Below are positions 1,848 to 46,685 of a stretch of 64,000 nucleotides of DNA, piece after piece. The stretch comes from Escherichia phage RB49. The notes beneath the pieces are model-generated. The model had not been told where the DNA came from, did no database searches, and saw only the letters and a list, made by a program, of their open reading frames with translations. Every line of letters begins with the position of its first letter. The stretch's first letter is position 1. Made by a program: the position numbers and the translations under genes. The stretch lies in the sequence record NC_005066.1. One strand, 5' to 3'.

Positions 1848-2285
1848 TTATTTGTTGATAACGATCTGATTTCGGCGAATGGTAACATTACTCTTAGAGA
1901 TGATCAGATCATCCGGCACTACGTTAGTTTTGTATGGTTGGAAGCGAACAAGCATCTGATTGCGTTTAGACCCTTCCTTAATCTTGATTTCCATCTGGAT
2001 ATTGTTTCCTACGTGAGCAACCGCAATTTCACCTTTATTCTCATAGACCCACTTGCTGGTAACGTCTCCAGCAAAAGCCTTAATAACTTGCAATGCTTCG
2101 TCGTATGCGGTAGAGCTGTGAACTTTCAAAAGGCCAGCCGTAGCAAGACGGGAGCAGGTGATCGCCGGAGATTGCCAAACATCAACATTAATTTGCTCAA
2201 TCAGAGTAACACCGCCATGATCAACTGCTTTGAATGCTTCAAACATTGCCTTTTTCATTGCTACGTGGTTTTTACGGAATTTCAT
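1848..2285 (-). CDS. Hypothetical protein
   Basis: 145 aa ORF, terminator immediately downstream. Confidence 0.5.
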   Translation of the reverse strand: MKFRKNHVAMKKAMFEAFKAVDHGGVTLIEQINVDVWQSPAITCSRLATAGLLKVHSSTAYDEALQVIKAFAGDVTSKWVYENKGEIAVAHVGNNIQMEIKIKEGSKRNQMLVRFQPYKTNVVPDDLIISKSNVTIRRNQIVINK

Positions 2286-2331
2286 AATTAGTCACCTCTA
2301 TTGATTAGTTATTCAGAATATCAATTACAAA

Positions 2332-2715
2332 TCAGGACATTGCCCGTTTGAATGCGTCCATTATAACAGTGTTATTTGGCTTGTCAACACGTTTTTGAAC
2401 TTTATTTTTAAATTTTTTGTTGATGTGGTGTTTACGATAAACAACCTTTTCACGGTTGGCGTAAGCCTCTCGTGCGTCTTTTACCATCAACCATGCCTTA
2501 GCCGCATCTTGTCCGCTGATCCCGCCAATCTTCTTAGCAATATCAACAAAATTAAGACCGTGGTCTTCGCGTAGCATGTAAACCATTAACGCTGTTTTCT
2601 TGTCCATCACTTCGCCCCATTGACGATTAACAGGATAGTGATCAGCACCGGAAACTGGATCATGATAGTGCCAATAAACCGGATAAATGCATTTTCTGAC
2701 TTCCACACATGACAT
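2332..2715 (-). CDS. Hypothetical protein, possible HTH DNA-binding
   Basis: 127 aa ORF; segment LNFVDIAKKIGGISGQDAAKAW resembles a helix-turn-helix. Confidence 0.4.
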   Translation of the reverse strand: MSCVEVRKCIYPVYWHYHDPVSGADHYPVNRQWGEVMDKKTALMVYMLREDHGLNFVDIAKKIGGISGQDAAKAWLMVKDAREAYANREKVVYRKHHINKKFKNKVQKRVDKPNNTVIMDAFKRAMS

Positions 2716-2964
2716 GCGACTAGCTGATAGACCATTGTTGAAACCAGAACTAGGATATAAACCGAAAGCGGTGTAACTTCGATTAGTCGGGAAATCTCAT
2801 TCATACTTCACCTCATACATTCATAAACACAACAACGAATAATACAGTAACAGTTATCAACGCCATTTTCAACCCCATATTCATAATATTTTCTTCGCCT
2901 CACGATGGACAGTAGCATGTCGATTCGTGCCATTATAGTCATCTAAATCGCTCTGTCAAGAACA

Positions 2965-2996
2965 AAAAAACAAAAAAGCCACCCCGAAGGATGGCT
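2965..2996 (-). terminator. Rho-independent terminator after hoc
   Basis: Imperfect hairpin agccacccc-gaagg-atggct with a flanking A/T run, 12 bp below the hoc stop. Confidence 0.45.
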
Positions 2997-3007
2997 GATA
3001 GATTTCA

Positions 3008-4222
3008 TTAAGCAGGATGCGTTTCACGAATGCGTAGAACTCGCTCTAACGTCTCTCGGTCCAGTTTATGTAACTCTTTAGACTGATACATGAAACCATT
3101 GCGAGATTCCATGCATGTGCAATCACTATATTTTTCTTCCGCTGCTGCGATCGTCTCCAGATCTTTGGCGTACTTGCTGGTTGAATAAACTTCTCGATCA
3201 CGCCACTCTAACCCAGCCTCATTGAATTTAACAATCTCGTCAAATACCCACCATCCAATGTAGATAAATGAAGTTTTGCGCCACGGGATCGGGTGTACGT
3301 AACGAAACATTTTAACAACTTCCATTGAACATTTTCGGCTTGTACTTGCTGCAACTTCTACTGTTTCATCTTCGATCTGTTGATATAGTTTAGCAACACA
3401 CCAGAATTTGGCTGTGTCATCGTAAGTAGCACTCTCTTTGAACAGATGACCGTCTGGAGTGATAGAAAATCCTTCCAGTGCTTCGCCGACCTCACTACCG
3501 ATCAGAGTCGGTGACAGTTGCCCTTCGCGCTGCAAATACCAGTTATATTTGATCGTCAAATTAGGCATACCGCTAGAATCGCCTACAATGTCCTCTGACA
3601 CAACATAATTAAGTGAGATCTCATTACCTAGTGCCACGGTCTTTGATTCCACCACATCCTGATCTACGTTCATTGTTGCCAGCATGATTTTAGTCGATGC
3701 GCTAGCGGCTGAATCTTCCGACTCTCCCCACACTTTTACAGTATACACGCCGTTTTTATCTGCTGTAAATTCTTGGATCGTAATATCCTGTGTTGTGTCT
3801 ATAACGTCTTCGCCCTTACTCCAACTATAATGTAGTTCATAGTTGTCTGCTGGAGTCTTCCCACCAGAAAATTTTACTGTTGCATGTAATTCTACGTCTG
3901 TTTGTGATGATACGTAGAAATGCTGCGGTTCGGTGATATTTACGATTAACTCAGCTTCTTCCATGAGGAAAACTTCAGATTCTACTGATGTCATCGTATC
4001 GGTATCTTGTACCGTGACTTTATAGCTACCCGCATTTTCACTTGTTGCGTCTGCTACAGTTAGCGTAGCTGTGTTATTTTCATGTGGTTGGTCGTCTTTT
4101 GTCCATGTATATGTCAAATTGCTGGGTAATGGTTCGTCACCCGCTACAGTCGCTGTTAAGGTGAAACCATCTCCAGCAAGAAAACATCTTTTGTTAGATT
4201 GTATTGATACTGTGAAAGCCAT
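3008..4222 (-). CDS. hoc: Hoc, highly immunogenic outer capsid protein with Ig-like domains
   Basis: 404 aa; C-terminal YVHPIPW...GWWVFDEIVK...ESRNG matches the T4 Hoc capsid-binding region as recalled; tandem Ig-like repeats at the N-terminus. Confidence 0.8.
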   Translation of the reverse strand: MAFTVSIQSNKRCFLAGDGFTLTATVAGDEPLPSNLTYTWTKDDQPHENNTATLTVADATSENAGSYKVTVQDTDTMTSVESEVFLMEEAELIVNITEPQHFYVSSQTDVELHATVKFSGGKTPADNYELHYSWSKGEDVIDTTQDITIQEFTADKNGVYTVKVWGESEDSAASASTKIMLATMNVDQDVVESKTVALGNEISLNYVVSEDIVGDSSGMPNLTIKYNWYLQREGQLSPTLIGSEVGEALEGFSITPDGHLFKESATYDDTAKFWCVAKLYQQIEDETVEVAASTSRKCSMEVVKMFRYVHPIPWRKTSFIYIGWWVFDEIVKFNEAGLEWRDREVYSTSKYAKDLETIAAAEEKYSDCTCMESRNGFMYQSKELHKLDRETLERVLRIRETHPA

Positions 4223-11255: not shown

Positions 11256-12985
11256 ATGACGCATTAACATCATTTCGCGGGATGCGCAAGGAAGCGGAAG
11301 AAAACCCGATTGATAAACTTAACAAATTAGATAAACTTGATTCTATTGATAATTTGCAAGCCGCTACCGAATTGGTGGCAGAGACAGTAGAACAAAAATC
11401 TAATGAAGTTGTTGGTGCGGTAGAGGATAACACCGCAGCCAATGAATTGACGGCCGAGAATACCCAATCTACCGCTGGCAATACCCAAAAAACTTATGAA
11501 GAATTGCAAAAACTCAATAATTTCTCTTCTCAGATGAATGAGAAATTACGTGGTTTTGGTGTTATGATGGAACGTAGATTTGGTGTTGTCAGTAAAATGG
11601 CTAGCGGTATTGGTGCGATTGAAGAAGCACTGAAAAAACCGGAACAACCGCAAACAATGCCATCACCTCAGCCATTTTTGCCTACTGTACCGGAACAGCC
11701 TAATAATGACAACTATCAAGGTCTTCCAAAGAAAAAACCGGATGTTGATGACCGAAAGAAAAAGAACGCCACAGATAAGCGTAATGCTGATTCTATGGAA
11801 AATCTTCTTAAAGTTGTTCGTGGAGGATTTAAAGAAACCATAGGTATCTCTAATAAGGTCTTAGGGATGTTATTTAAGATCACTTTGACCGCTATGGCAG
11901 AAGCCGCAAAATGGGGTGCTATTTTGATGGGTATTGTTTTTGTCATTGATACCCTGATGGTTCATTTCAGATATTGGAGTGATTTATTCGAAACAAAATT
12001 CAAGGAATTTATGGATAAGGCCGGAGGATGGGCTGGTCCTATTAGCGATATTTTAACTACTGTTCGTCAGGTTCGAGATTATTGGTCTAAAGGAGAATAT
12101 AAAGAATTAATTAAATCTCTGGTTATGGGTATTGGTGATGCGTTCTATAAAACCTTTATCCAACTTGATCGAATTATCACTACTGGTATTGCTAAAATTC
12201 TTCGCATGATCCCTGGTATGGGTGATTATGCCGATAATTTAGAATACGGTGCTTTAAAGTCTGCTGTTGCTAAAGGCTATAAGCCAAATGAAAGAGAACT
12301 CGAATTAATGGATAAGGTCGAGTCTGAACACGAAGAAGACAAATATGGAGAGCGCACAGGATGGACAGGAAAAGCCCGTGATATTGGCGAGGCCATAGGC
12401 GAATCTATTAAAGATAAATTTAATGAAGGTCTTGTTAGTCTGGGCTGGAGAGATCAAAAGGATGTTGACGCAGAGAAACGACAAGAAGAATTAAAACGCG
12501 GGGAATACAAGTCTGTTTCTGCTGAACAACGATCTGCTAGTCGTAAACTTAAAATTAAAAGCGAGGGAGCGATCAATAATATTAATGAAGTTATGGAGAA
12601 TTTGAGCGGTGACTATGACAAAGAAAGAATGGAAGAGTTGAAAAAGGATATTGATGTTTACCGTGAACAAGTTCAAGATCCTACATTAGTTGAAAGTGAT
12701 CGTTCTCAGTTAGAGCGTCTTATTGAAAAATTTGATGAGATGTATGCTGATAAAACTAATGGTGTGGTTCCAACTAACCCTGTTCCTGCAACTGAAACGG
12801 AAACAGCAAAACAAGCGGAACGTACTGAACAAATGCAGAAACAAGCTGCAATCCAGCAACAAACGACAAATCAGACCTCAAACGTAAATAATACACAAAT
12901 TGTAACAAACAATAGAACTATTAAACAGGGTGCACCAACAACTAGAATTGATGCCCCTGGTACAATTAATATGGGGAACTTTTAA
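11252..12985 (+). CDS. 29: gp29 baseplate hub / tail tape-measure protein
   Basis: 577 aa; position and size; coiled-coil-rich. Confidence 0.65.
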   Translation: MNDALTSFRGMRKEAEENPIDKLNKLDKLDSIDNLQAATELVAETVEQKSNEVVGAVEDNTAANELTAENTQSTAGNTQKTYEELQKLNNFSSQMNEKLRGFGVMMERRFGVVSKMASGIGAIEEALKKPEQPQTMPSPQPFLPTVPEQPNNDNYQGLPKKKPDVDDRKKKNATDKRNADSMENLLKVVRGGFKETIGISNKVLGMLFKITLTAMAEAAKWGAILMGIVFVIDTLMVHFRYWSDLFETKFKEFMDKAGGWAGPISDILTTVRQVRDYWSKGEYKELIKSLVMGIGDAFYKTFIQLDRIITTGIAKILRMIPGMGDYADNLEYGALKSAVAKGYKPNERELELMDKVESEHEEDKYGERTGWTGKARDIGEAIGESIKDKFNEGLVSLGWRDQKDVDAEKRQEELKRGEYKSVSAEQRSASRKLKIKSEGAINNINEVMENLSGDYDKERMEELKKDIDVYREQVQDPTLVESDRSQLERLIEKFDEMYADKTNGVVPTNPVPATETETAKQAERTEQMQKQAAIQQQTTNQTSNVNNTQIVTNNRTIKQGAPTTRIDAPGTINMGNF

Positions 12986-21096: not shown

Positions 21097-21165
21097 TGTT
21101 TGATTCTCCTAAGTGGTATCTCGTCTTGATGGTTGTATTGTAGGGGAGTTATCCTCCCCTGTCAA
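21097..21165 (-). promoter_or_regulatory. Early promoter cassette with palindromic spacer
   Basis: TTGACA then GGGGAGGATAACTCCCC palindrome; heads the 21096 down to 19041 operon. Confidence 0.55.
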
Positions 21166-27220: not shown

Positions 27221-27294
27221 TTTTGATTCTCCGTTTAAGAAAGTGTGTTTCGTTTTGATGTGTGTAGTATAGGGGATACGTGATCCCCTGTCAA
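27221..27294 (-). promoter_or_regulatory. Early promoter cassette
   Basis: TTGACA-GGGGATCACGTATCCCC-TATACT-leader. Confidence 0.55.
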
Positions 27295-36232: not shown

Positions 36233-36285
36233 ATGTTCCTCCGTTTCGATGTGCGTATTATGCTATGGCAAGATCAGATTGTCAA
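36233..36285 (-). promoter_or_regulatory. Early promoter cassette
   Basis: TTGACA-17 bp-CATAAT-ACGCACATCGAAACGGAGG. Confidence 0.55.
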
Positions 36286-38489: not shown

Positions 38490-38549
38490 AATAAAATCCT
38501 CACTTGTTTTTGATGGTTGTATTATAGCGGGGATTTCTCCCCGCGTCAA
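38490..38549 (-). promoter_or_regulatory. Early promoter cassette with palindromic spacer
   Basis: TTGACg-CGGGGAGAAATCCCCGC-TATAAT. Confidence 0.6.
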
Positions 38550-40869: not shown

Positions 40870-42102
40870 TTATACTGCCATTTGAGCGGTGATTGCTGGA
40901 TGGCTTTGATAGTTGTGAATTTTAAAATCTTTCGGAGTCTTTGTCAATACCTCATCTAAAGATTTAAATTCCGGCAACTCAATTGTTGGTTTATCAAACG
41001 GAACACGGCTTAACTGTTCCATAACTTGATCAAAATGGTTTTTGTAAATGTGAGTATCTCCACCAGAGAAAATCAGTTCTCCTACCTCAAGATCACACAT
41101 TTTCGCTATGATGTGAGTTAACAGCGCATAGCTGGCGACGTTAAAGGGCAAGCCCAAAAAGCTGTCTACGCTTCGCTGAAACCACATACAAGACAGTTTA
41201 CCTTCATTGACGTAGAATTGTACGAACGGATGACATACACCCAACACAGCATTATGTGTTCCTTGTACGTTCCATGAGTCAATAATGATCCGGCGATCCG
41301 TTGGATTGTTTTTAATTTGTTCAATCACGTTTTGTAACTGGTCTTCCCAAATCTTCGGGCGATAGACATATTCTTCATCGTCTTTAGTGCTCGATGTGTC
41401 TACGTCCATACTAGCAAAGATCGTGGTATCTGGTGCTAAAATATCCCCACCCAGATAATCACTATCAAGCAGATAACCGAAATAACCATCATCTACCCAT
41501 TCCTGGAATCCCCACAAGCAATATGCATCATTAACAAAATTAGATTGAGTCTTCCAGTGGTCTGCTACTAAGAATAGATTATACTCAGAATCAAACTCTT
41601 CATAACGCATACCACGCCAGATAGCACATAAACGGTCTTCTGTTTCATTGGTTGGCGTAAAGTCTTCTACCCACGGGTGTTTAAATGTATGTGTATATTT
41701 GCTCTTAACGCGCTTAATTTTGATTTCACCGTGTGGATGAATCGGTTTGCGTCGCCATGCCATACCATACATATTACCGACATTATAACCATTGAATCGC
41801 AAAGGATTCTTTTCTTTCATATCAAGACAGTTGCCGCGCCAAATATCAAAGGCTTCCTCGTCAAACTTACCGCGTGTAATTTCCTGTAAGCGACGGCGGT
41901 CAAGTGATCCCTCCATAAACCATAGCAACTCGCCAATTACAGAGGCTGTAGCCATCTTTTTAGTGGTCAGTAAGGGGAAACCCTTGCTTAAATCAATTCG
42001 CATCTCTGCGCCGAATTTAGAGAGCGTACCTACCCCCGTGCGGTCTTCACGAGGCCAACCATTATCAAGAACATCACGCAATAGTTTCAAATATTCTTTC
42101 AT
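40870..42102 (-). CDS. td: Thymidylate synthase with a ~130 aa internal insertion
   Basis: 410 aa; ThyA motifs DRTGVGT, YGMAWRR, DRRIIIDSWN, CHPFVQFYV, LGLPFNVASYALL; extra segment between the YGxxWR motif and the DxRRII motif. Confidence 0.8.
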   Translation of the reverse strand: MKEYLKLLRDVLDNGWPREDRTGVGTLSKFGAEMRIDLSKGFPLLTTKKMATASVIGELLWFMEGSLDRRRLQEITRGKFDEEAFDIWRGNCLDMKEKNPLRFNGYNVGNMYGMAWRRKPIHPHGEIKIKRVKSKYTHTFKHPWVEDFTPTNETEDRLCAIWRGMRYEEFDSEYNLFLVADHWKTQSNFVNDAYCLWGFQEWVDDGYFGYLLDSDYLGGDILAPDTTIFASMDVDTSSTKDDEEYVYRPKIWEDQLQNVIEQIKNNPTDRRIIIDSWNVQGTHNAVLGVCHPFVQFYVNEGKLSCMWFQRSVDSFLGLPFNVASYALLTHIIAKMCDLEVGELIFSGGDTHIYKNHFDQVMEQLSRVPFDKPTIELPEFKSLDEVLTKTPKDFKIHNYQSHPAITAQMAV

Positions 42103-43021: not shown

Positions 43022-43351
43022 TCAAATCAGTTTGAAATAGTTTTCGTTTACATTTTCTTCTGTGATTGCGGTCTTAAATTCTTGACCGTTATCCGGTGTG
43101 ATGAAATAACGGTCAGAATAATCACGAAAACGTTTTAAGTGAGATACCCCAACATTAACACCATTTTCCCAGAAACGAAAGGTAATCATTTTTGGTTCAT
43201 ATCGATAGTCGCTGGTTAACACAGTACCATCACCGCGACGGGCTTCATAAACCGTAATACATTCACGATTAGCGGCTTTTAGGCATTCTTCAATAGTGCC
43301 ACATGAGATAATACTTACTTTTTCATCTACGATTTGTTCTACAGTCCACAT
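43022..43351 (-). CDS. Hypothetical protein
   Basis: 109 aa ORF with promoter cassette upstream. Confidence 0.5.
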   Translation of the reverse strand: MWTVEQIVDEKVSIISCGTIEECLKAANRECITVYEARRGDGTVLTSDYRYEPKMITFRFWENGVNVGVSHLKRFRDYSDRYFITPDNGQEFKTAITEENVNENYFKLI

Positions 43352-43410
43352 AATATAGTCCTCACTTTGATTCGATGTTTGTATTATACACTGTTGCGTT
43401 ACGCTGTCAA
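43352..43410 (-). promoter_or_regulatory. Early promoter cassette
   Basis: TTGACA-16 bp-TATAAT on the minus strand. Confidence 0.5.
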
Positions 43411-44856
43411 CTCTTTTTCAAAAGATTTTACGATATACATGATAGTGCTCAATTCAGACGGCGCTACTGTCTCTGTCCAACCATCCGGCATATCTTCTTT
43501 CGAGATATAGGAAGTTTTACCTTTCATCGCTTCCTTGATCTTGTTCTCTAAGTCTAAGATCTTTTGACCGTCTTGTAAAGTCAGTTCATAAAAGATCTCG
43601 TGGTCGAATTTAGAAACGTTAGATTGCTGTTTCATTCTTTCTTGTGTTGTTTTATTTGTTATACCAAATTTAATTCCCACCAAGAAAGAATCTTTAATTA
43701 TTTTCTGTATATACAATACGCCTTTTTTGGATGGTCTAAATCCATAATGTGCACAATTCGGACATCCTTTACCAGATAAAAAATTTTGTGCGGATGTTGT
43801 ATATTCTCCACAATTAGAACACAACAATTTTAGATTTTTTACTTTTCCTCCTTTATAACCAGAATCAAAGCATACAAATGTTATATTATCACGGTCTTTA
43901 GATTCTTTAATAATATCGAGCATGGCTTCTTCTTCGGTTTTTAATCCAACCCCAGCACATTTAGCACACCCGTTTCTTCCATTTTTAATAGAATTTAATG
44001 ATGTTGTATACTCACCGTGTCGGTGACAACTAACTACCAAATTTTTTGTGTTTATATTTTTATAGCCATCAATAAAACCAACAACAGTTAAACCGAGTTG
44101 ATCTGCACACTCTTTTGCAAAATTAATAGCGTCTTCTTCTGAAAATGTTCTCTTAGACACTGCTTTATTTTTACTACATATAGGACAGCCACGACCCAAC
44201 CTACAGAAATTGTAATAACTGGTTTTAAATTCACCATGAATAAAACATTCAACAATTAAATTTCTCTCATTGTTTTTTACATACCCACCTTCAAATCCGA
44301 CAACTACACAATTTCCTAGTATATTTGCACGTTCGACCGCTTCTAGTGTAACAATGTTTATGTCATATTTTGGTGTTCCTTTGCATTTAGGACAACCACG
44401 CCCTTGCATATATTTGTTATGCGAAGTTTTATATTCTCCATGATGTTTACAGTTCACTATAAGATTTCTGTATGCGCTTGTTTTATATCCACCGTCGAAT
44501 CCTATAATATCTTCGGTTTCTCTTTTCTGAGACTCCATCAAAACATCGGCAAGTGCTTTATTAGTTGAGTTTCTTCTGATTTCAGCAACTCTATTGGTTG
44601 CACATTTTTTACAGCCATAGTTTTTTTCGTAATTTCCGATATTTGACGTGAAGATGTTTTTACATTTGCATAATATACATGCTTTTGTTTTAACAGAATT
44701 CCATTCACCAATAAAGCCAAGATATATATGTTTTTTGGATAATGATATTTTAATAAATCTTTTCTCATATTCCATAGGAGAAATAGCACTAGATGTTTTT
44801 CCAGTCCATTGAATGTCTTTAGCATATCTAAGAATTGTCATTGATTTAATTTTCAT
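43399..44856 (-). CDS. Multi-zinc-ribbon repeat protein with C-terminal T5orf172/GIY-YIG-like domain (putative homing-endonuclease-like)
   Basis: 485 aa; five repeats of about 40 aa of form GF.GGYK...NL.V.C..HGEY.TS.......G.GCP.C, then GVLYIQKI...FLVGIKFGITNKTTQERMKQ. Confidence 0.5.
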   Translation of the reverse strand: MKIKSMTILRYAKDIQWTGKTSSAISPMEYEKRFIKISLSKKHIYLGFIGEWNSVKTKACILCKCKNIFTSNIGNYEKNYGCKKCATNRVAEIRRNSTNKALADVLMESQKRETEDIIGFDGGYKTSAYRNLIVNCKHHGEYKTSHNKYMQGRGCPKCKGTPKYDINIVTLEAVERANILGNCVVVGFEGGYVKNNERNLIVECFIHGEFKTSYYNFCRLGRGCPICSKNKAVSKRTFSEEDAINFAKECADQLGLTVVGFIDGYKNINTKNLVVSCHRHGEYTTSLNSIKNGRNGCAKCAGVGLKTEEEAMLDIIKESKDRDNITFVCFDSGYKGGKVKNLKLLCSNCGEYTTSAQNFLSGKGCPNCAHYGFRPSKKGVLYIQKIIKDSFLVGIKFGITNKTTQERMKQQSNVSKFDHEIFYELTLQDGQKILDLENKIKEAMKGKTSYISKEDMPDGWTETVAPSELSTIMYIVKSFEKELTA

Positions 44857-44913
44857 ATTTTATCCTCCGTTGTTTCGATGTTTGTATTATACATTACCAC
44901 ATAGTCATGTCAA
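44857..44913 (-). promoter_or_regulatory. Early promoter cassette
   Basis: TTGACA ... TATAAT-like box upstream of the zinc-ribbon repeat gene. Confidence 0.45.
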
Positions 44914-44945: not shown

Positions 44946-44965
44946 AGCCTCCCCGAAGGGAGGCT
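44946..44965 (-). terminator. Rho-independent terminator after gene 32
   Basis: agcctccc-cgaa-gggaggct followed by TTTTTT on the minus strand. Confidence 0.65.
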
Positions 44966-44975
44966 GTAAAATTCA

Positions 44976-45950
44976 TTACATCGCTAACAGAGAGTCCAGG
45001 TCATCCAGATCAGAAGCGGAGGAAGTACCGCCACCCAGATCCAGTGATGCCATCAGGTCATCAGCAGAAGAATCTGCCGCCGTGCTAGCTGCGTTAATAC
45101 CAACTACAGTGCTAGCTGCGGCAATACCAGAATCGAATGCATTTAAAGCAGCGTCAAAATCGTCAAGCTGGCTGTTAATCGCTGCCGCAGCACTGGAAGC
45201 CGCAGCACCAGCTACCATAGAAACGCCCATAGTTTTCTTAAATTTGGTTTCCAGTTCATCGAACGGTTTAAACTGGCTAGGCGCTACAATCTCACTCAGA
45301 TCAACCATGTTTTCCATCAGATATTTCTGATATGCTTCGTCTTCAATTTTCGGAAGCTGTGATTGCTGCATGAAACGAGAATCATCATAGTTCTGGTGTT
45401 TATCAACCTTCTTAGCTTTCAGGAGGAAGTTAGCACCGGAGAACACACAAGTTACATCTACCGGAACTTCGCCCATGTCGGTATTCACGTTCACCATTGC
45501 AACGATCTTATCATAAATTTTCTGACCGAAGCGGAATTTGAATACCTTACCTTCATTTTCTGGTGCTTGAGGATCTTTCAGTACCAGAATATTTGCGTAG
45601 TAAGAGGCTTTACGCTTAATCAGTTGCCATTCTGTTTTATCGGTATTGTACAGATCTTTTTCGTTAATATATTTGCACACAGGGCAAGAATCAAAATCAC
45701 CGTGGGTGCTGGAGCAGTTTTCCCAATACCATTTACCATTAACTTTGAAGGAATGGTTTACCAGTTTCACAATCGGCAGACCGTCTTCTGTCTTAGACGG
45801 CAGGAAGCGAATCAGGGCTTCACCGTTACCTGCTGCATCAGTCTTAATCTTCCACTCTTTCGGATCTTCTTTGGAGAAACCGTTGCCACCTTTCAGTGCG
45901 GCCAGTTGAGCTTGCAGTTTGGAAGAATCTTGGCGTTTAAACATATTCAC
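44976..45950 (-). CDS. 32: gp32 single-stranded DNA-binding protein
   Basis: 324 aa; ALIRFLPSK ... KWYWEN ... [12 protein letters not shown] matches T4 gp32 as recalled; acidic Ala/Ser-rich C-terminal tail. Confidence 0.85.
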
Positions 45951-46004: not shown

Positions 46005-46685
46005 TCAACTATTTGTTTCGACTTTTAATTGAGATATTTCTTTACACTCTTTAACTACTTTAACAAATAATGCTCTTGCTTTTGCGGCGTCAATAACAAG
46101 TAGTTTCTTATACGCCTTCATTTTAACACTATAAGTTTGCCAAATCAAGTCTTTGGCTACCTTGTCGTGTTCGTCGATTATATTTAGAAAGCTATCTAAC
46201 AACATAAACGACTCAAACGATATAATCCGATTTTGCAGTAGTTTAAAGATACCGCTAGTTTCGGTTGCGGGATTGTATGTAATTAGCTCTTTAAGAGTAA
46301 CCCCGCGTTTCTCGGAGAAGTATACCAGACTTTTAATGTCATCGTCAAATCGTGTTGCCGCATCAGTGATTTTACCGATGTACTCCATGTAAAACCCGTA
46401 TGCGTCAACATCGGTGATTTCACCTACCCATGCATCGGTATTAGCTACCAGATTGCTTAGGAATAGGAAGTATAATTCTCTTAGATTGTACTTTTCCGCT
46501 AATTTTGCGAAATAATACTTATCTCTGCGTTTATTGAATGCGGCATCAGACAACCGCATCCTCCAATTGTATTTTACGCAATCATAACGCCCGTTCATAT
46601 GAGCTTTCATCATGCAATATAACATATACACAGATTTAGCATTAATTCGCATATCTGGATCTGGAGGAAGACGGTTTCTGATCAT
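46005..46685 (-). CDS. 59: gp59 helicase loader
   Basis: 226 aa; KSVYMLYCMMKAHMNGRYD ... KYNWRMRLSDAAFNKRRDKYYF close to T4 gp59 as recalled. Confidence 0.85.
   Translation of the reverse strand: MIRNRLPPDPDMRINAKSVYMLYCMMKAHMNGRYDCVKYNWRMRLSDAAFNKRRDKYYFAKLAEKYNLRELYFLFLSNLVANTDAWVGEITDVDAYGFYMEYIGKITDAATRFDDDIKSLVYFSEKRGVTLKELITYNPATETSGIFKLLQNRIISFESFMLLDSFLNIIDEHDKVAKDLIWQTYSVKMKAYKKLLVIDAAKARALFVKVVKECKEISQLKVETNS

Follow-up and report, generated by a model that had tools for sequence, protein, structure and literature searches.

An optional gene beside gene 32 of Escherichia phage RB49 joins a CapR-type zinc-module array to a T5orf172-like domain

What is a protein built of five zinc modules and a nuclease-like tail doing beside gene 32 of a T4-like phage? 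The gene that raises this question encodes 485 amino acids (aa) and lies in a 64,000-nucleotide (nt) stretch of Escherichia phage RB49 (NC_005066.1; hereafter the window, meaning this whole stretch), a coliphage of the Krischvirus (RB49/Phi1/GEC-3S) group. A sequence-only reading had proposed that it may be a mobile, DNA-binding, nuclease-like element of unusual architecture. We find that it is a new allele or member of the published CapR/T5orf172 family, not a new kind of element, and that it is optional and exchangeable among close relatives. Our preferred reading, to which we give a probability of about 0.6, is an active, selfish, site-specific free-standing endonuclease gene of the CapR/T5orf172 class, whose members are putative homing endonucleases.

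The zinc-module array and the C-terminal domain

The gene is read on the minus strand, and its product divides into six parts.

43399..44856, minus strand: complete open reading frame (ORF) from the ORF list, 485 aa plus stop; CapR-type zinc-finger array, then T5orf172-like GIY-YIG domain
44602..44856, minus strand: module 1 (aa 1-85), N-terminal header and divergent zinc module; ligands C60, C63, C82, C85
44383..44601, minus strand: module 2 (aa 86-158); ligands C136, H139, C155, C158; CapR/DUF723 stretch at aa 117-159
44176..44382, minus strand: module 3 (aa 159-227); ligands C204, H207, C224, C227; DUF723 stretch at aa 180-227
43957..44175, minus strand: module 4 (aa 228-300); ligands C277, H280, C297, C300
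43753..43956, minus strand: module 5 (aa 301-368); ligands C346, C349, C365, C368; best CapR stretch at aa 318-369
43402..43752, minus strand: C-terminal nuclease-like domain (aa 369-485, 117 aa), predicted GIY-YIG fold of T5orf172 type; conserved Y382, K396, G398, R407, E437, G459, E462

The five tandem zinc modules of the sequence-only reading are present, with G-C-x-x-C knuckles at aa 81, 154, 223, 296 and 364, each following a C-x2-C or C-x2-H pair by 15-20 residues, which predicts five four-ligand zinc sites. The repeat unit had been put at about 40 aa; the measured period is 68-73 aa. The GCPxC ending assigned to every repeat occurs in three of the five knuckles, the other two reading GCKKC and GCAKC. 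Pairwise identity is 35-41% among modules 2-5 and 21-24% between module 1 and the rest. Across an alignment of 56 homologs, C63, C82 and C85 of module 1 are nearly invariant; C277, C297 and C300 of module 4 and C346, C365 and C368 of module 5 are invariant, with H280 nearly so. The Pfam CapR homology domain (PF21817) matches four stretches of the array (E 9.4e-19; 67.8 bits against a cutoff of 24.2), DUF723 (PF05265) matches with 26.2 bits (cutoff 20.9), and the DUF4379 match is also weaker than that of CapR.

An AlphaFold2 model of the full-length protein, built from the 56 homologs, contains five equivalent folded units (mean predicted local distance difference test score, pLDDT, 90.9; predicted template-modelling score, pTM, 0.40). 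Each unit runs from a helix through three strands and a second, short helix to the knuckle; the strands of module 1 are E44-49, E58-62 and E68-72. The mutual orientation of the units is not fixed, and a pTM this low beside such a pLDDT is expected of a beads-on-a-string layout. Taken with the E-value of the CapR match, the five equivalent units place the repeats far beyond chance. A Foldseek search of the full-length model against the PDB returned nothing at E <= 0.001, so the array has no solved-structure match there.

The C-terminal strings quoted in the sequence-only reading are present in the protein, and its assignment of this segment as T5orf172/GIY-YIG-like was borne out, by a route other than the profile search it had suggested. 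That direct search gave no match of the domain to PF10544, PF13455 or PF01541 even at E <= 10. The whole protein likewise had no match to PF01541, and none to T5orf172 (PF10544) or MUG113 (PF13455) at E <= 1, NCBIfam had none to the C-terminal domain, and the C-terminal family profile met among PDB sequences only chance matches to OTUB1 (E > 0.5). Two candidate identities for this segment, SbcD_C and VP91_N (E about 0.03-0.04), were dismissed as noise. The Pfam thresholds for T5orf172 and MUG113 are missed equally by T5.141, Helene, Phi1 ORF240 and the Whisky allele.

The domain is placed by indirect evidence. Of 44 non-redundant homologous C-terminal domains that we aligned, 22 matched MUG113 and 18 T5orf172 at E <= 0.01, and one matched PF01541. 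We split this alignment into the subfamily of the query, with the pattern 'KFGITN...DG[YW]TET' (29 sequences), and a canonical T5orf172-type group with 'YKIGIT...GNTELF' (10 sequences); hhalign joined the two at 99.1% probability (E 8.6e-19, 98 columns), the shared zinc knuckle and linker contributing part of this score. Y382, K396, G398, E437, G459 and E462 are invariant in both the 44- and the 56-sequence alignments, and R407 is invariant in the former and nearly so in the latter. These residues follow one another in the expected order of GIY tyrosine, 'KIG' variant of the YIG motif, catalytic arginine and metal-binding glutamate, with the canonical Y-I-G replaced by K396-F-G398, like the 'KIG' of T5orf172-type relatives. 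Judged by motif order and not by superposition, Y382, R407 and E462 would be equivalent to Y6, R27 and E75 of I-TevI. The domain has a three-stranded sheet with the beta-beta-alpha-beta-alpha topology of the GIY-YIG superfamily. On sequence grounds, the C-terminal 117 aa are a divergent T5orf172-type GIY-YIG domain, with cleavage itself a prediction.

This combination has precedents. CapR, a repressor from a Vibrio cholerae phage satellite, binds a -35 region, and DNA binding by its zinc finger was demonstrated by electrophoretic mobility shift assay; the same DNA-binding domain forms the N-terminus of ICP1 proteins with a C-terminal T5orf172 domain, which were proposed to be homing endonucleases and to which phage T5 Orf141 was named as a relative (PMC8096241). 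CapR, DUF723 or DUF4397 (the paper's spelling) zinc fingers are borne by 87% of 229 T5orf172 genes, often as repeats (up to six in Vibrio phage Helene), and these genes display repeat recombination, domain swapping and a preference for sites adjacent to essential genes; T4 itself is without T5orf172 genes (PMC10448857). Zinc-finger repeats followed by T5orf172 are the norm of the published family (PMC8096241, PMC10448857), and the architecture can no longer be called unusual.

Direct comparisons agree with this placement. T5.141 aligns with the window protein at 34% identity over 238 aa (E 2e-28), and its annotation, 'similar to RB49ORF239C', means that a homolog from the RB49 group has long been on record. 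Within the nuclease domain, identity reaches 43% with Helene and 42.5% with 184E37.3a (Vibrio phages analysed in PMC10448857). Alleles in RefSeq and in relatives already bear the label 'endonuclease' or 'GIY-YIG nuclease family protein', and PHROG 681 ('endonuclease') matches the 485-aa product at E 4e-99. With T5.141, Helene VPBG_00042 and ICP1 Gp165/Gp174, the protein shares N-terminal CapR/DUF723/DUF4379 repeats and a C-terminal T5orf172-type nuclease domain. It also shares the family's essential-gene neighbours (here gp32, dihydrofolate reductase (DHFR) and thymidylate synthase adjoin), its variation in repeat number, its domain swapping and its patchy distribution. It differs in that its host is a T4-like Krischvirus, and in that alleles of two to six modules swap here at a single conserved slot with a nearly fixed 3' end. 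In the papers cited here, homing is demonstrated for no CapR/T5orf172 member (PMC8096241, PMC10448857).

Two further systems invite comparison. ICP1 Odn (Gp88) is the only family member with demonstrated, Glu-dependent cleavage, which is lost in the E180A mutant (PMC8263062). It resembles the window protein in its T5orf172-type catalytic domain, its conserved Arg and Glu and its swappable DNA-binding domain (PMC8263062), but that domain is of the RepA_N type and Odn acts against a satellite, whereas the window protein carries a five-module zinc-finger array. The T4 annotation bears out the expectation that T4-type genomes carry homing endonucleases nearby: td contains I-TevI, and SegG adjoins gene 32. 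The T4 Seg proteins and I-TevI share with the window protein the GIY-YIG superfamily, the td-frd-32-59 neighbourhood, a modular beads-on-a-string build and the position of a free-standing gene between conserved genes. Their nuclease, however, is N-terminal, while here the array occupies aa 1-368 and the nuclease aa 369-485, and SegG is annotated on the far side of gene 32, in the gap to gene 59. The likeness extends to lifestyle and superfamily but not to membership of the same family.

Contents of the slot and history of its alleles

On one side the gene is flanked by gp32 (44976..45950; PF08804, E 1e-51); on the other follow, in order, a 109-aa ORF (43022..43351), DHFR (PF00186) and thymidylate synthase. 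The proposed location between frd and gene 32 is right as to the gp32 and DHFR flanks, but frd is not adjacent, because the 109-aa ORF intervenes. The GC content of the ORF is 32.8%, that of the window 40.1% and that of the neighbouring genes 37-45%. A search of the window found no paralogs of the gene.

The flanks match 57 phage records at 83-95% nucleotide identity, 40 of which were listed. The 5' two-thirds of the ORF is covered by none of the 57, and no protein encoded in phage records is more than 60% identical to the 485-aa product. An identical protein (in an ENA metagenome) and a 78%-identical one were found in metagenome data only, the latter allele occupying the same slot downstream of gene 32.

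An allele of this gene fills the slot in 27 of the 57 Krischvirus records, and at least 13 of the 40 listed are without one. The slot is empty in PHB13, holds a 109-aa ORFan in kvi and 011D4, and holds a 145-aa Rha plus DUF559 gene in Escherichia phage vB_ESM-pEJ01 (985-1422 of its compared locus). The number of modules in homologs was taken from protein length classes, and in Delraymugoa from nucleotide repeats, the spacing of the first zinc pair being variable. By this measure there are three modules in W115 (338 aa), four in Cognac (405 aa, in tandem with an ORFan, making two cassettes), five in the window and, by length class, in Phi1 and Whisky, and six in Delraymugoa and JEP8 (541-542 aa). 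The MIZ4 group, which includes MIZ5, Sf20 and ELT4, has a decayed allele with in-frame stops in the first module. Whatever the slot holds, its flanks remain 95-100% identical. The comparison across relatives that the sequence-only reading had called for thus finds no core gene, as the slot is empty or otherwise filled in many close relatives; the gene is optional and exchangeable.

Several observations on these loci stand apart from that result. The pEJ01 gene, annotated only as hypothetical, matches Rha (PF09669, E 3e-8) and a DUF559/Vsr-like endonuclease domain (PF04480, E 5e-5), which makes it a second nuclease-type occupant of the slot. In the MIZ4 allele (locus positions 1000-1926), the stops fall in the N-terminal header and first module; its annotation covers only a 182-aa remnant of one module plus the nuclease and leaves about 380 nt upstream unannotated. 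The six modules of the Delraymugoa allele (locus positions 2254-3501) are visible as nucleotide repeats with a 213-nt period and 64-71% identity, which suggests a fairly recent tandem expansion; the window allele has no module-level nucleotide repeats. The only flank segment at 58-89% identity encodes the Ser/Ala/Asp-rich C-terminal tail of gp32 (window 45057-45156), the remaining gene being 94-100% identical. In the window, gene 59 (46005-46685) directly follows gene 32. In kvi, a 198-aa ORF that is absent from the window (locus positions 3392-3988) lies between genes 32 and 59, the position of segG in T4, so this gap is another variable slot beside gene 32.

The family also varies in another type of phage. 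In L012, an Escherichia coli-associated phage or prophage contig, a 422-aa paralog (11502-12770) with faint CapR, DUF723 and MUG113 matches immediately precedes a Gp38_N adhesin gene; this paralog is missing from the otherwise collinear contig L013. A second copy (P0035, 418 aa), upstream of a tail-fibre gene, is present in both. The two contigs provide independent presence/absence evidence for the family.

The alleles are mosaics. Their last 320-385 nt are common to all, at 84-88% nucleotide identity, and no nucleotide similarity can be detected in the part that encodes the array. Across 32 protein clusters, identity to the window protein is 83-100% over the final 70 aa (94-100% with one exception) and 40-85% over the N-terminal half of the nuclease domain. 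The arrays, of two to six modules, are 22-35% identical, two close alleles excepted. In a comparison with the 78%-identical allele, synonymous divergence (dS) was 0.23 for the last 70 codons but about 1.1 for the array and 1.5 for the N-terminal half of the nuclease domain. The 3' end of the gene thus looks as if it had a younger history, like a part of the recombining flank. The ratio of nonsynonymous to synonymous divergence (dN/dS) in this one pair of alleles from the same slot is 0.15 in the array and 0.08 in the nuclease domain, and such low values indicate that purifying selection keeps the gene functional. That the window allele might be a pseudogene or in decay is ruled out by its intact ORF and the dN/dS of 0.08-0.15.

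Promoters and repeats around the gene

The sequence-only reading had credited the gene with its own promoter cassette, and a perfect sigma-70 promoter does lie upstream of the ORF. The regulatory features and repeats are as follows.

44886..44913, minus strand: own sigma-70-type early promoter, TTGACA-16 nt-TATAAT, 12/12 consensus match
44864..44868, minus strand: ribosome-binding site GGAGG, 7 nt before the ATG, read from the sequence
44946..44965, minus strand: gene 32 terminator stem-loop from a terminator scan (8 bp stem with 6 GC pairs, T-run)
43383..43410, minus strand: second perfect promoter, for the 109-aa ORF and frd; the last codons and stop of the 485-aa ORF contain its -35 hexamer and some of its spacer
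44870..44893, minus strand: 24-nt direct repeat, upstream copy, from a repeat search; 23/24 identical between copies
43367..43390, minus strand: 24-nt direct repeat, downstream copy, from a repeat search

Position 44913, previously taken as the end of the element, is the 5' edge of the -35 hexamer. The gene 32 terminator, with this promoter 32 nt downstream, forms a composite like the PeSL cassettes of Phi1 and RB49. At the other end, the last codons of the ORF (GAG TTG ACA GCG TAA) contain the -35 hexamer of the second promoter. The same overlap of 3' end and promoter was found in Phi1, Delraymugoa, W115 and kvi, where the unrelated ORFan also terminates in TTGACAGCGTAA. The 24-nt repeats bracket the cassette at a spacing of 1503 nt and run from the -10 region into the leader. 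In the empty site of PHB13 a single hybrid promoter remains, its upstream-type spacer and ribosome-binding site fused to the start of the 109-aa ORF.

PeSL cassettes of Phi1 and RB49 recombine with one another, which shuffles ORFs and excises mini-circles (PMC2839356). Such a cassette has a composite of stem-loop and sigma-70 early promoter on either side of its ORF. The gene resembles them, within the same phage genus, in being an optional ORF with strong, repeated sigma-70 early promoters at both ends, the upstream one following a stem-loop. It differs from them in that its downstream copy is a promoter without a stem-loop, in that its slot lies in a conserved block of replication genes, not in a hyperplastic region, and in that its cargo is a nuclease, not an ORFan.

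The window has six promoter cassettes of this kind. All are read on the minus strand, and three contain a G/C stem-loop in the spacer that separates the hexamers. Four lie elsewhere (21125-21165, 27254-27294, 36245-36285 and 38509-38549, all minus strand) and read TTGACA, 16-17 nt, TATAAT-ACA.ACATC.AA. Three of these four have a G/C-rich inverted repeat between -35 and -10 (for example GGGGATCACGTATCCCC) and resemble the PeSLs of Phi1 and RB49.

A further observation concerns the thymidylate synthase ORF of the same flank (window 40870-42102, minus strand). The Pfam match to this 410-aa ORF is split in two, with aa 254-410 aligned to profile positions 110-266. The offset implies a mid-enzyme insertion of about 140 aa. 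The td coding sequences of relatives are of similar size (1221-1233 nt), which makes the insert a feature of the lineage.

How the gene may spread

Under our preferred reading, the gene would be transcribed early from its own sigma-70 promoter, and the five zinc modules, each folded independently, would jointly recognise an extended DNA target near which the GIY-YIG-type domain (Y382, R407, E462) would cut. In a mixed infection, the break in a genome lacking the allele would be repaired from the carrier, so that the cassette and adjacent markers would spread; the 24-nt promoter repeats and the common 3' end of the gene may further aid this exchange. What the data show directly are the architecture, the fold, the conservation of residues, purifying selection, the promoter, the presence and absence of the gene among relatives, allelic replacement at one slot and the decayed allele. 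DNA binding, cleavage, a target site and homing of the window protein are inferred.

Several points weigh against a homing endonuclease. No cleavage site or target can be named. Binned flank identity in ten relatives gave no clear co-conversion tract tied to slot content, only the 3' tail of gene 32 being variable. A single common homing site would not predict arrays of 22-35% identity in one slot with near-identical flanks; with such almost unrelated arrays, simple homing fits awkwardly and leaves room for alternatives. Lastly, the bracketing promoter repeats give the cassette a nuclease-free route of exchange besides any homing (PMC2839356).

The alternative that survives best, although we consider it unlikely, is a nuclease that, like Odn, acts against other genomes (co-infecting phages, rival alleles, satellites or host DNA), its array diversifying in conflict while the nuclease stays constant. 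This would account for last 70 aa that are 83-100% identical across the 32 clusters while the arrays, of two to six modules, are 22-35% identical, and for the fact that all located alleles (Phi1, Delraymugoa, W115, Whisky, Cognac, MIZ4 and L011) occupy one slot, which is hard to reconcile with one homing site. Odn itself illustrates how a T5orf172 nuclease can be retargeted when its DNA-binding domain is swapped (PMC8263062). The array dN/dS of 0.15, however, gives no sign of positive selection in the sole testable pair, PADLOC returned no defence-system match, no target was identified for such a nuclease, and a selfish element's life cycle accounts at least as well for presence/absence and the decayed MIZ4 allele. 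A more specific and somewhat less probable form of the idea is that the slot is a hyper-allelic 'specificity locus', in which a near-fixed nuclease 3' end is recombined with arrays of two to six modules and alleles target each other or competing phages. If this were true, the locus would be a naturally reprogrammable modular nuclease system in phage-phage conflict.

Less probable again is that the gene is passive cargo of PeSL-type promoter-cassette shuffling by homologous recombination, its nuclease irrelevant to its own spread. Such shuffling has been demonstrated in Phi1 and RB49 (PMC2839356), and the locus has much of what it would need: a 24-nt repeat (23/24) on either side of the cassette, 1503 nt apart, a single hybrid promoter and ribosome-binding site in the empty site of PHB13, unrelated ORFs in the slot (the kvi ORFan and the pEJ01 Rha-DUF559 gene) and tandem cassettes in Cognac. 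The downstream copy, however, is a promoter without a stem-loop, and shuffling leaves unexplained an intact nuclease whose conserved catalytic residues are under strong purifying selection. It is also compatible with nuclease-driven spread, and both mechanisms can coexist. A domesticated DNA-binding regulator (like CapR, or like I-TevI in its autorepression), its array acting on phage promoters and its cutting lost, has little to recommend it: CapR is a repressor derived from this family that binds a -35 region (PMC8096241), and the gene lies within an early promoter cluster, its 3' end overlapping the next promoter, but across 44-56 homologs Y382, E437 and E462 never vary and R407 never or almost never does, dN/dS in the nuclease domain is 0.08, and about half of the close relatives dispense with the gene.

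For the phage, our analysis replaces the annotation 'hypothetical protein' with that of an optional gene for a CapR-array/T5orf172-type endonuclease, in a coliphage genus relevant to therapy. For the family, it extends CapR/T5orf172 genes to T4-like phages and to a site beside gene 32. Within flanks that are 95-100% identical, the slot offers a natural series that runs from the empty state through unrelated cargo and alleles of three to six modules to a decayed allele. This series can be used to study whether T5orf172 genes do home, how the zinc modules specify DNA, and how nuclease-driven spread and recombination between promoter repeats may cooperate.

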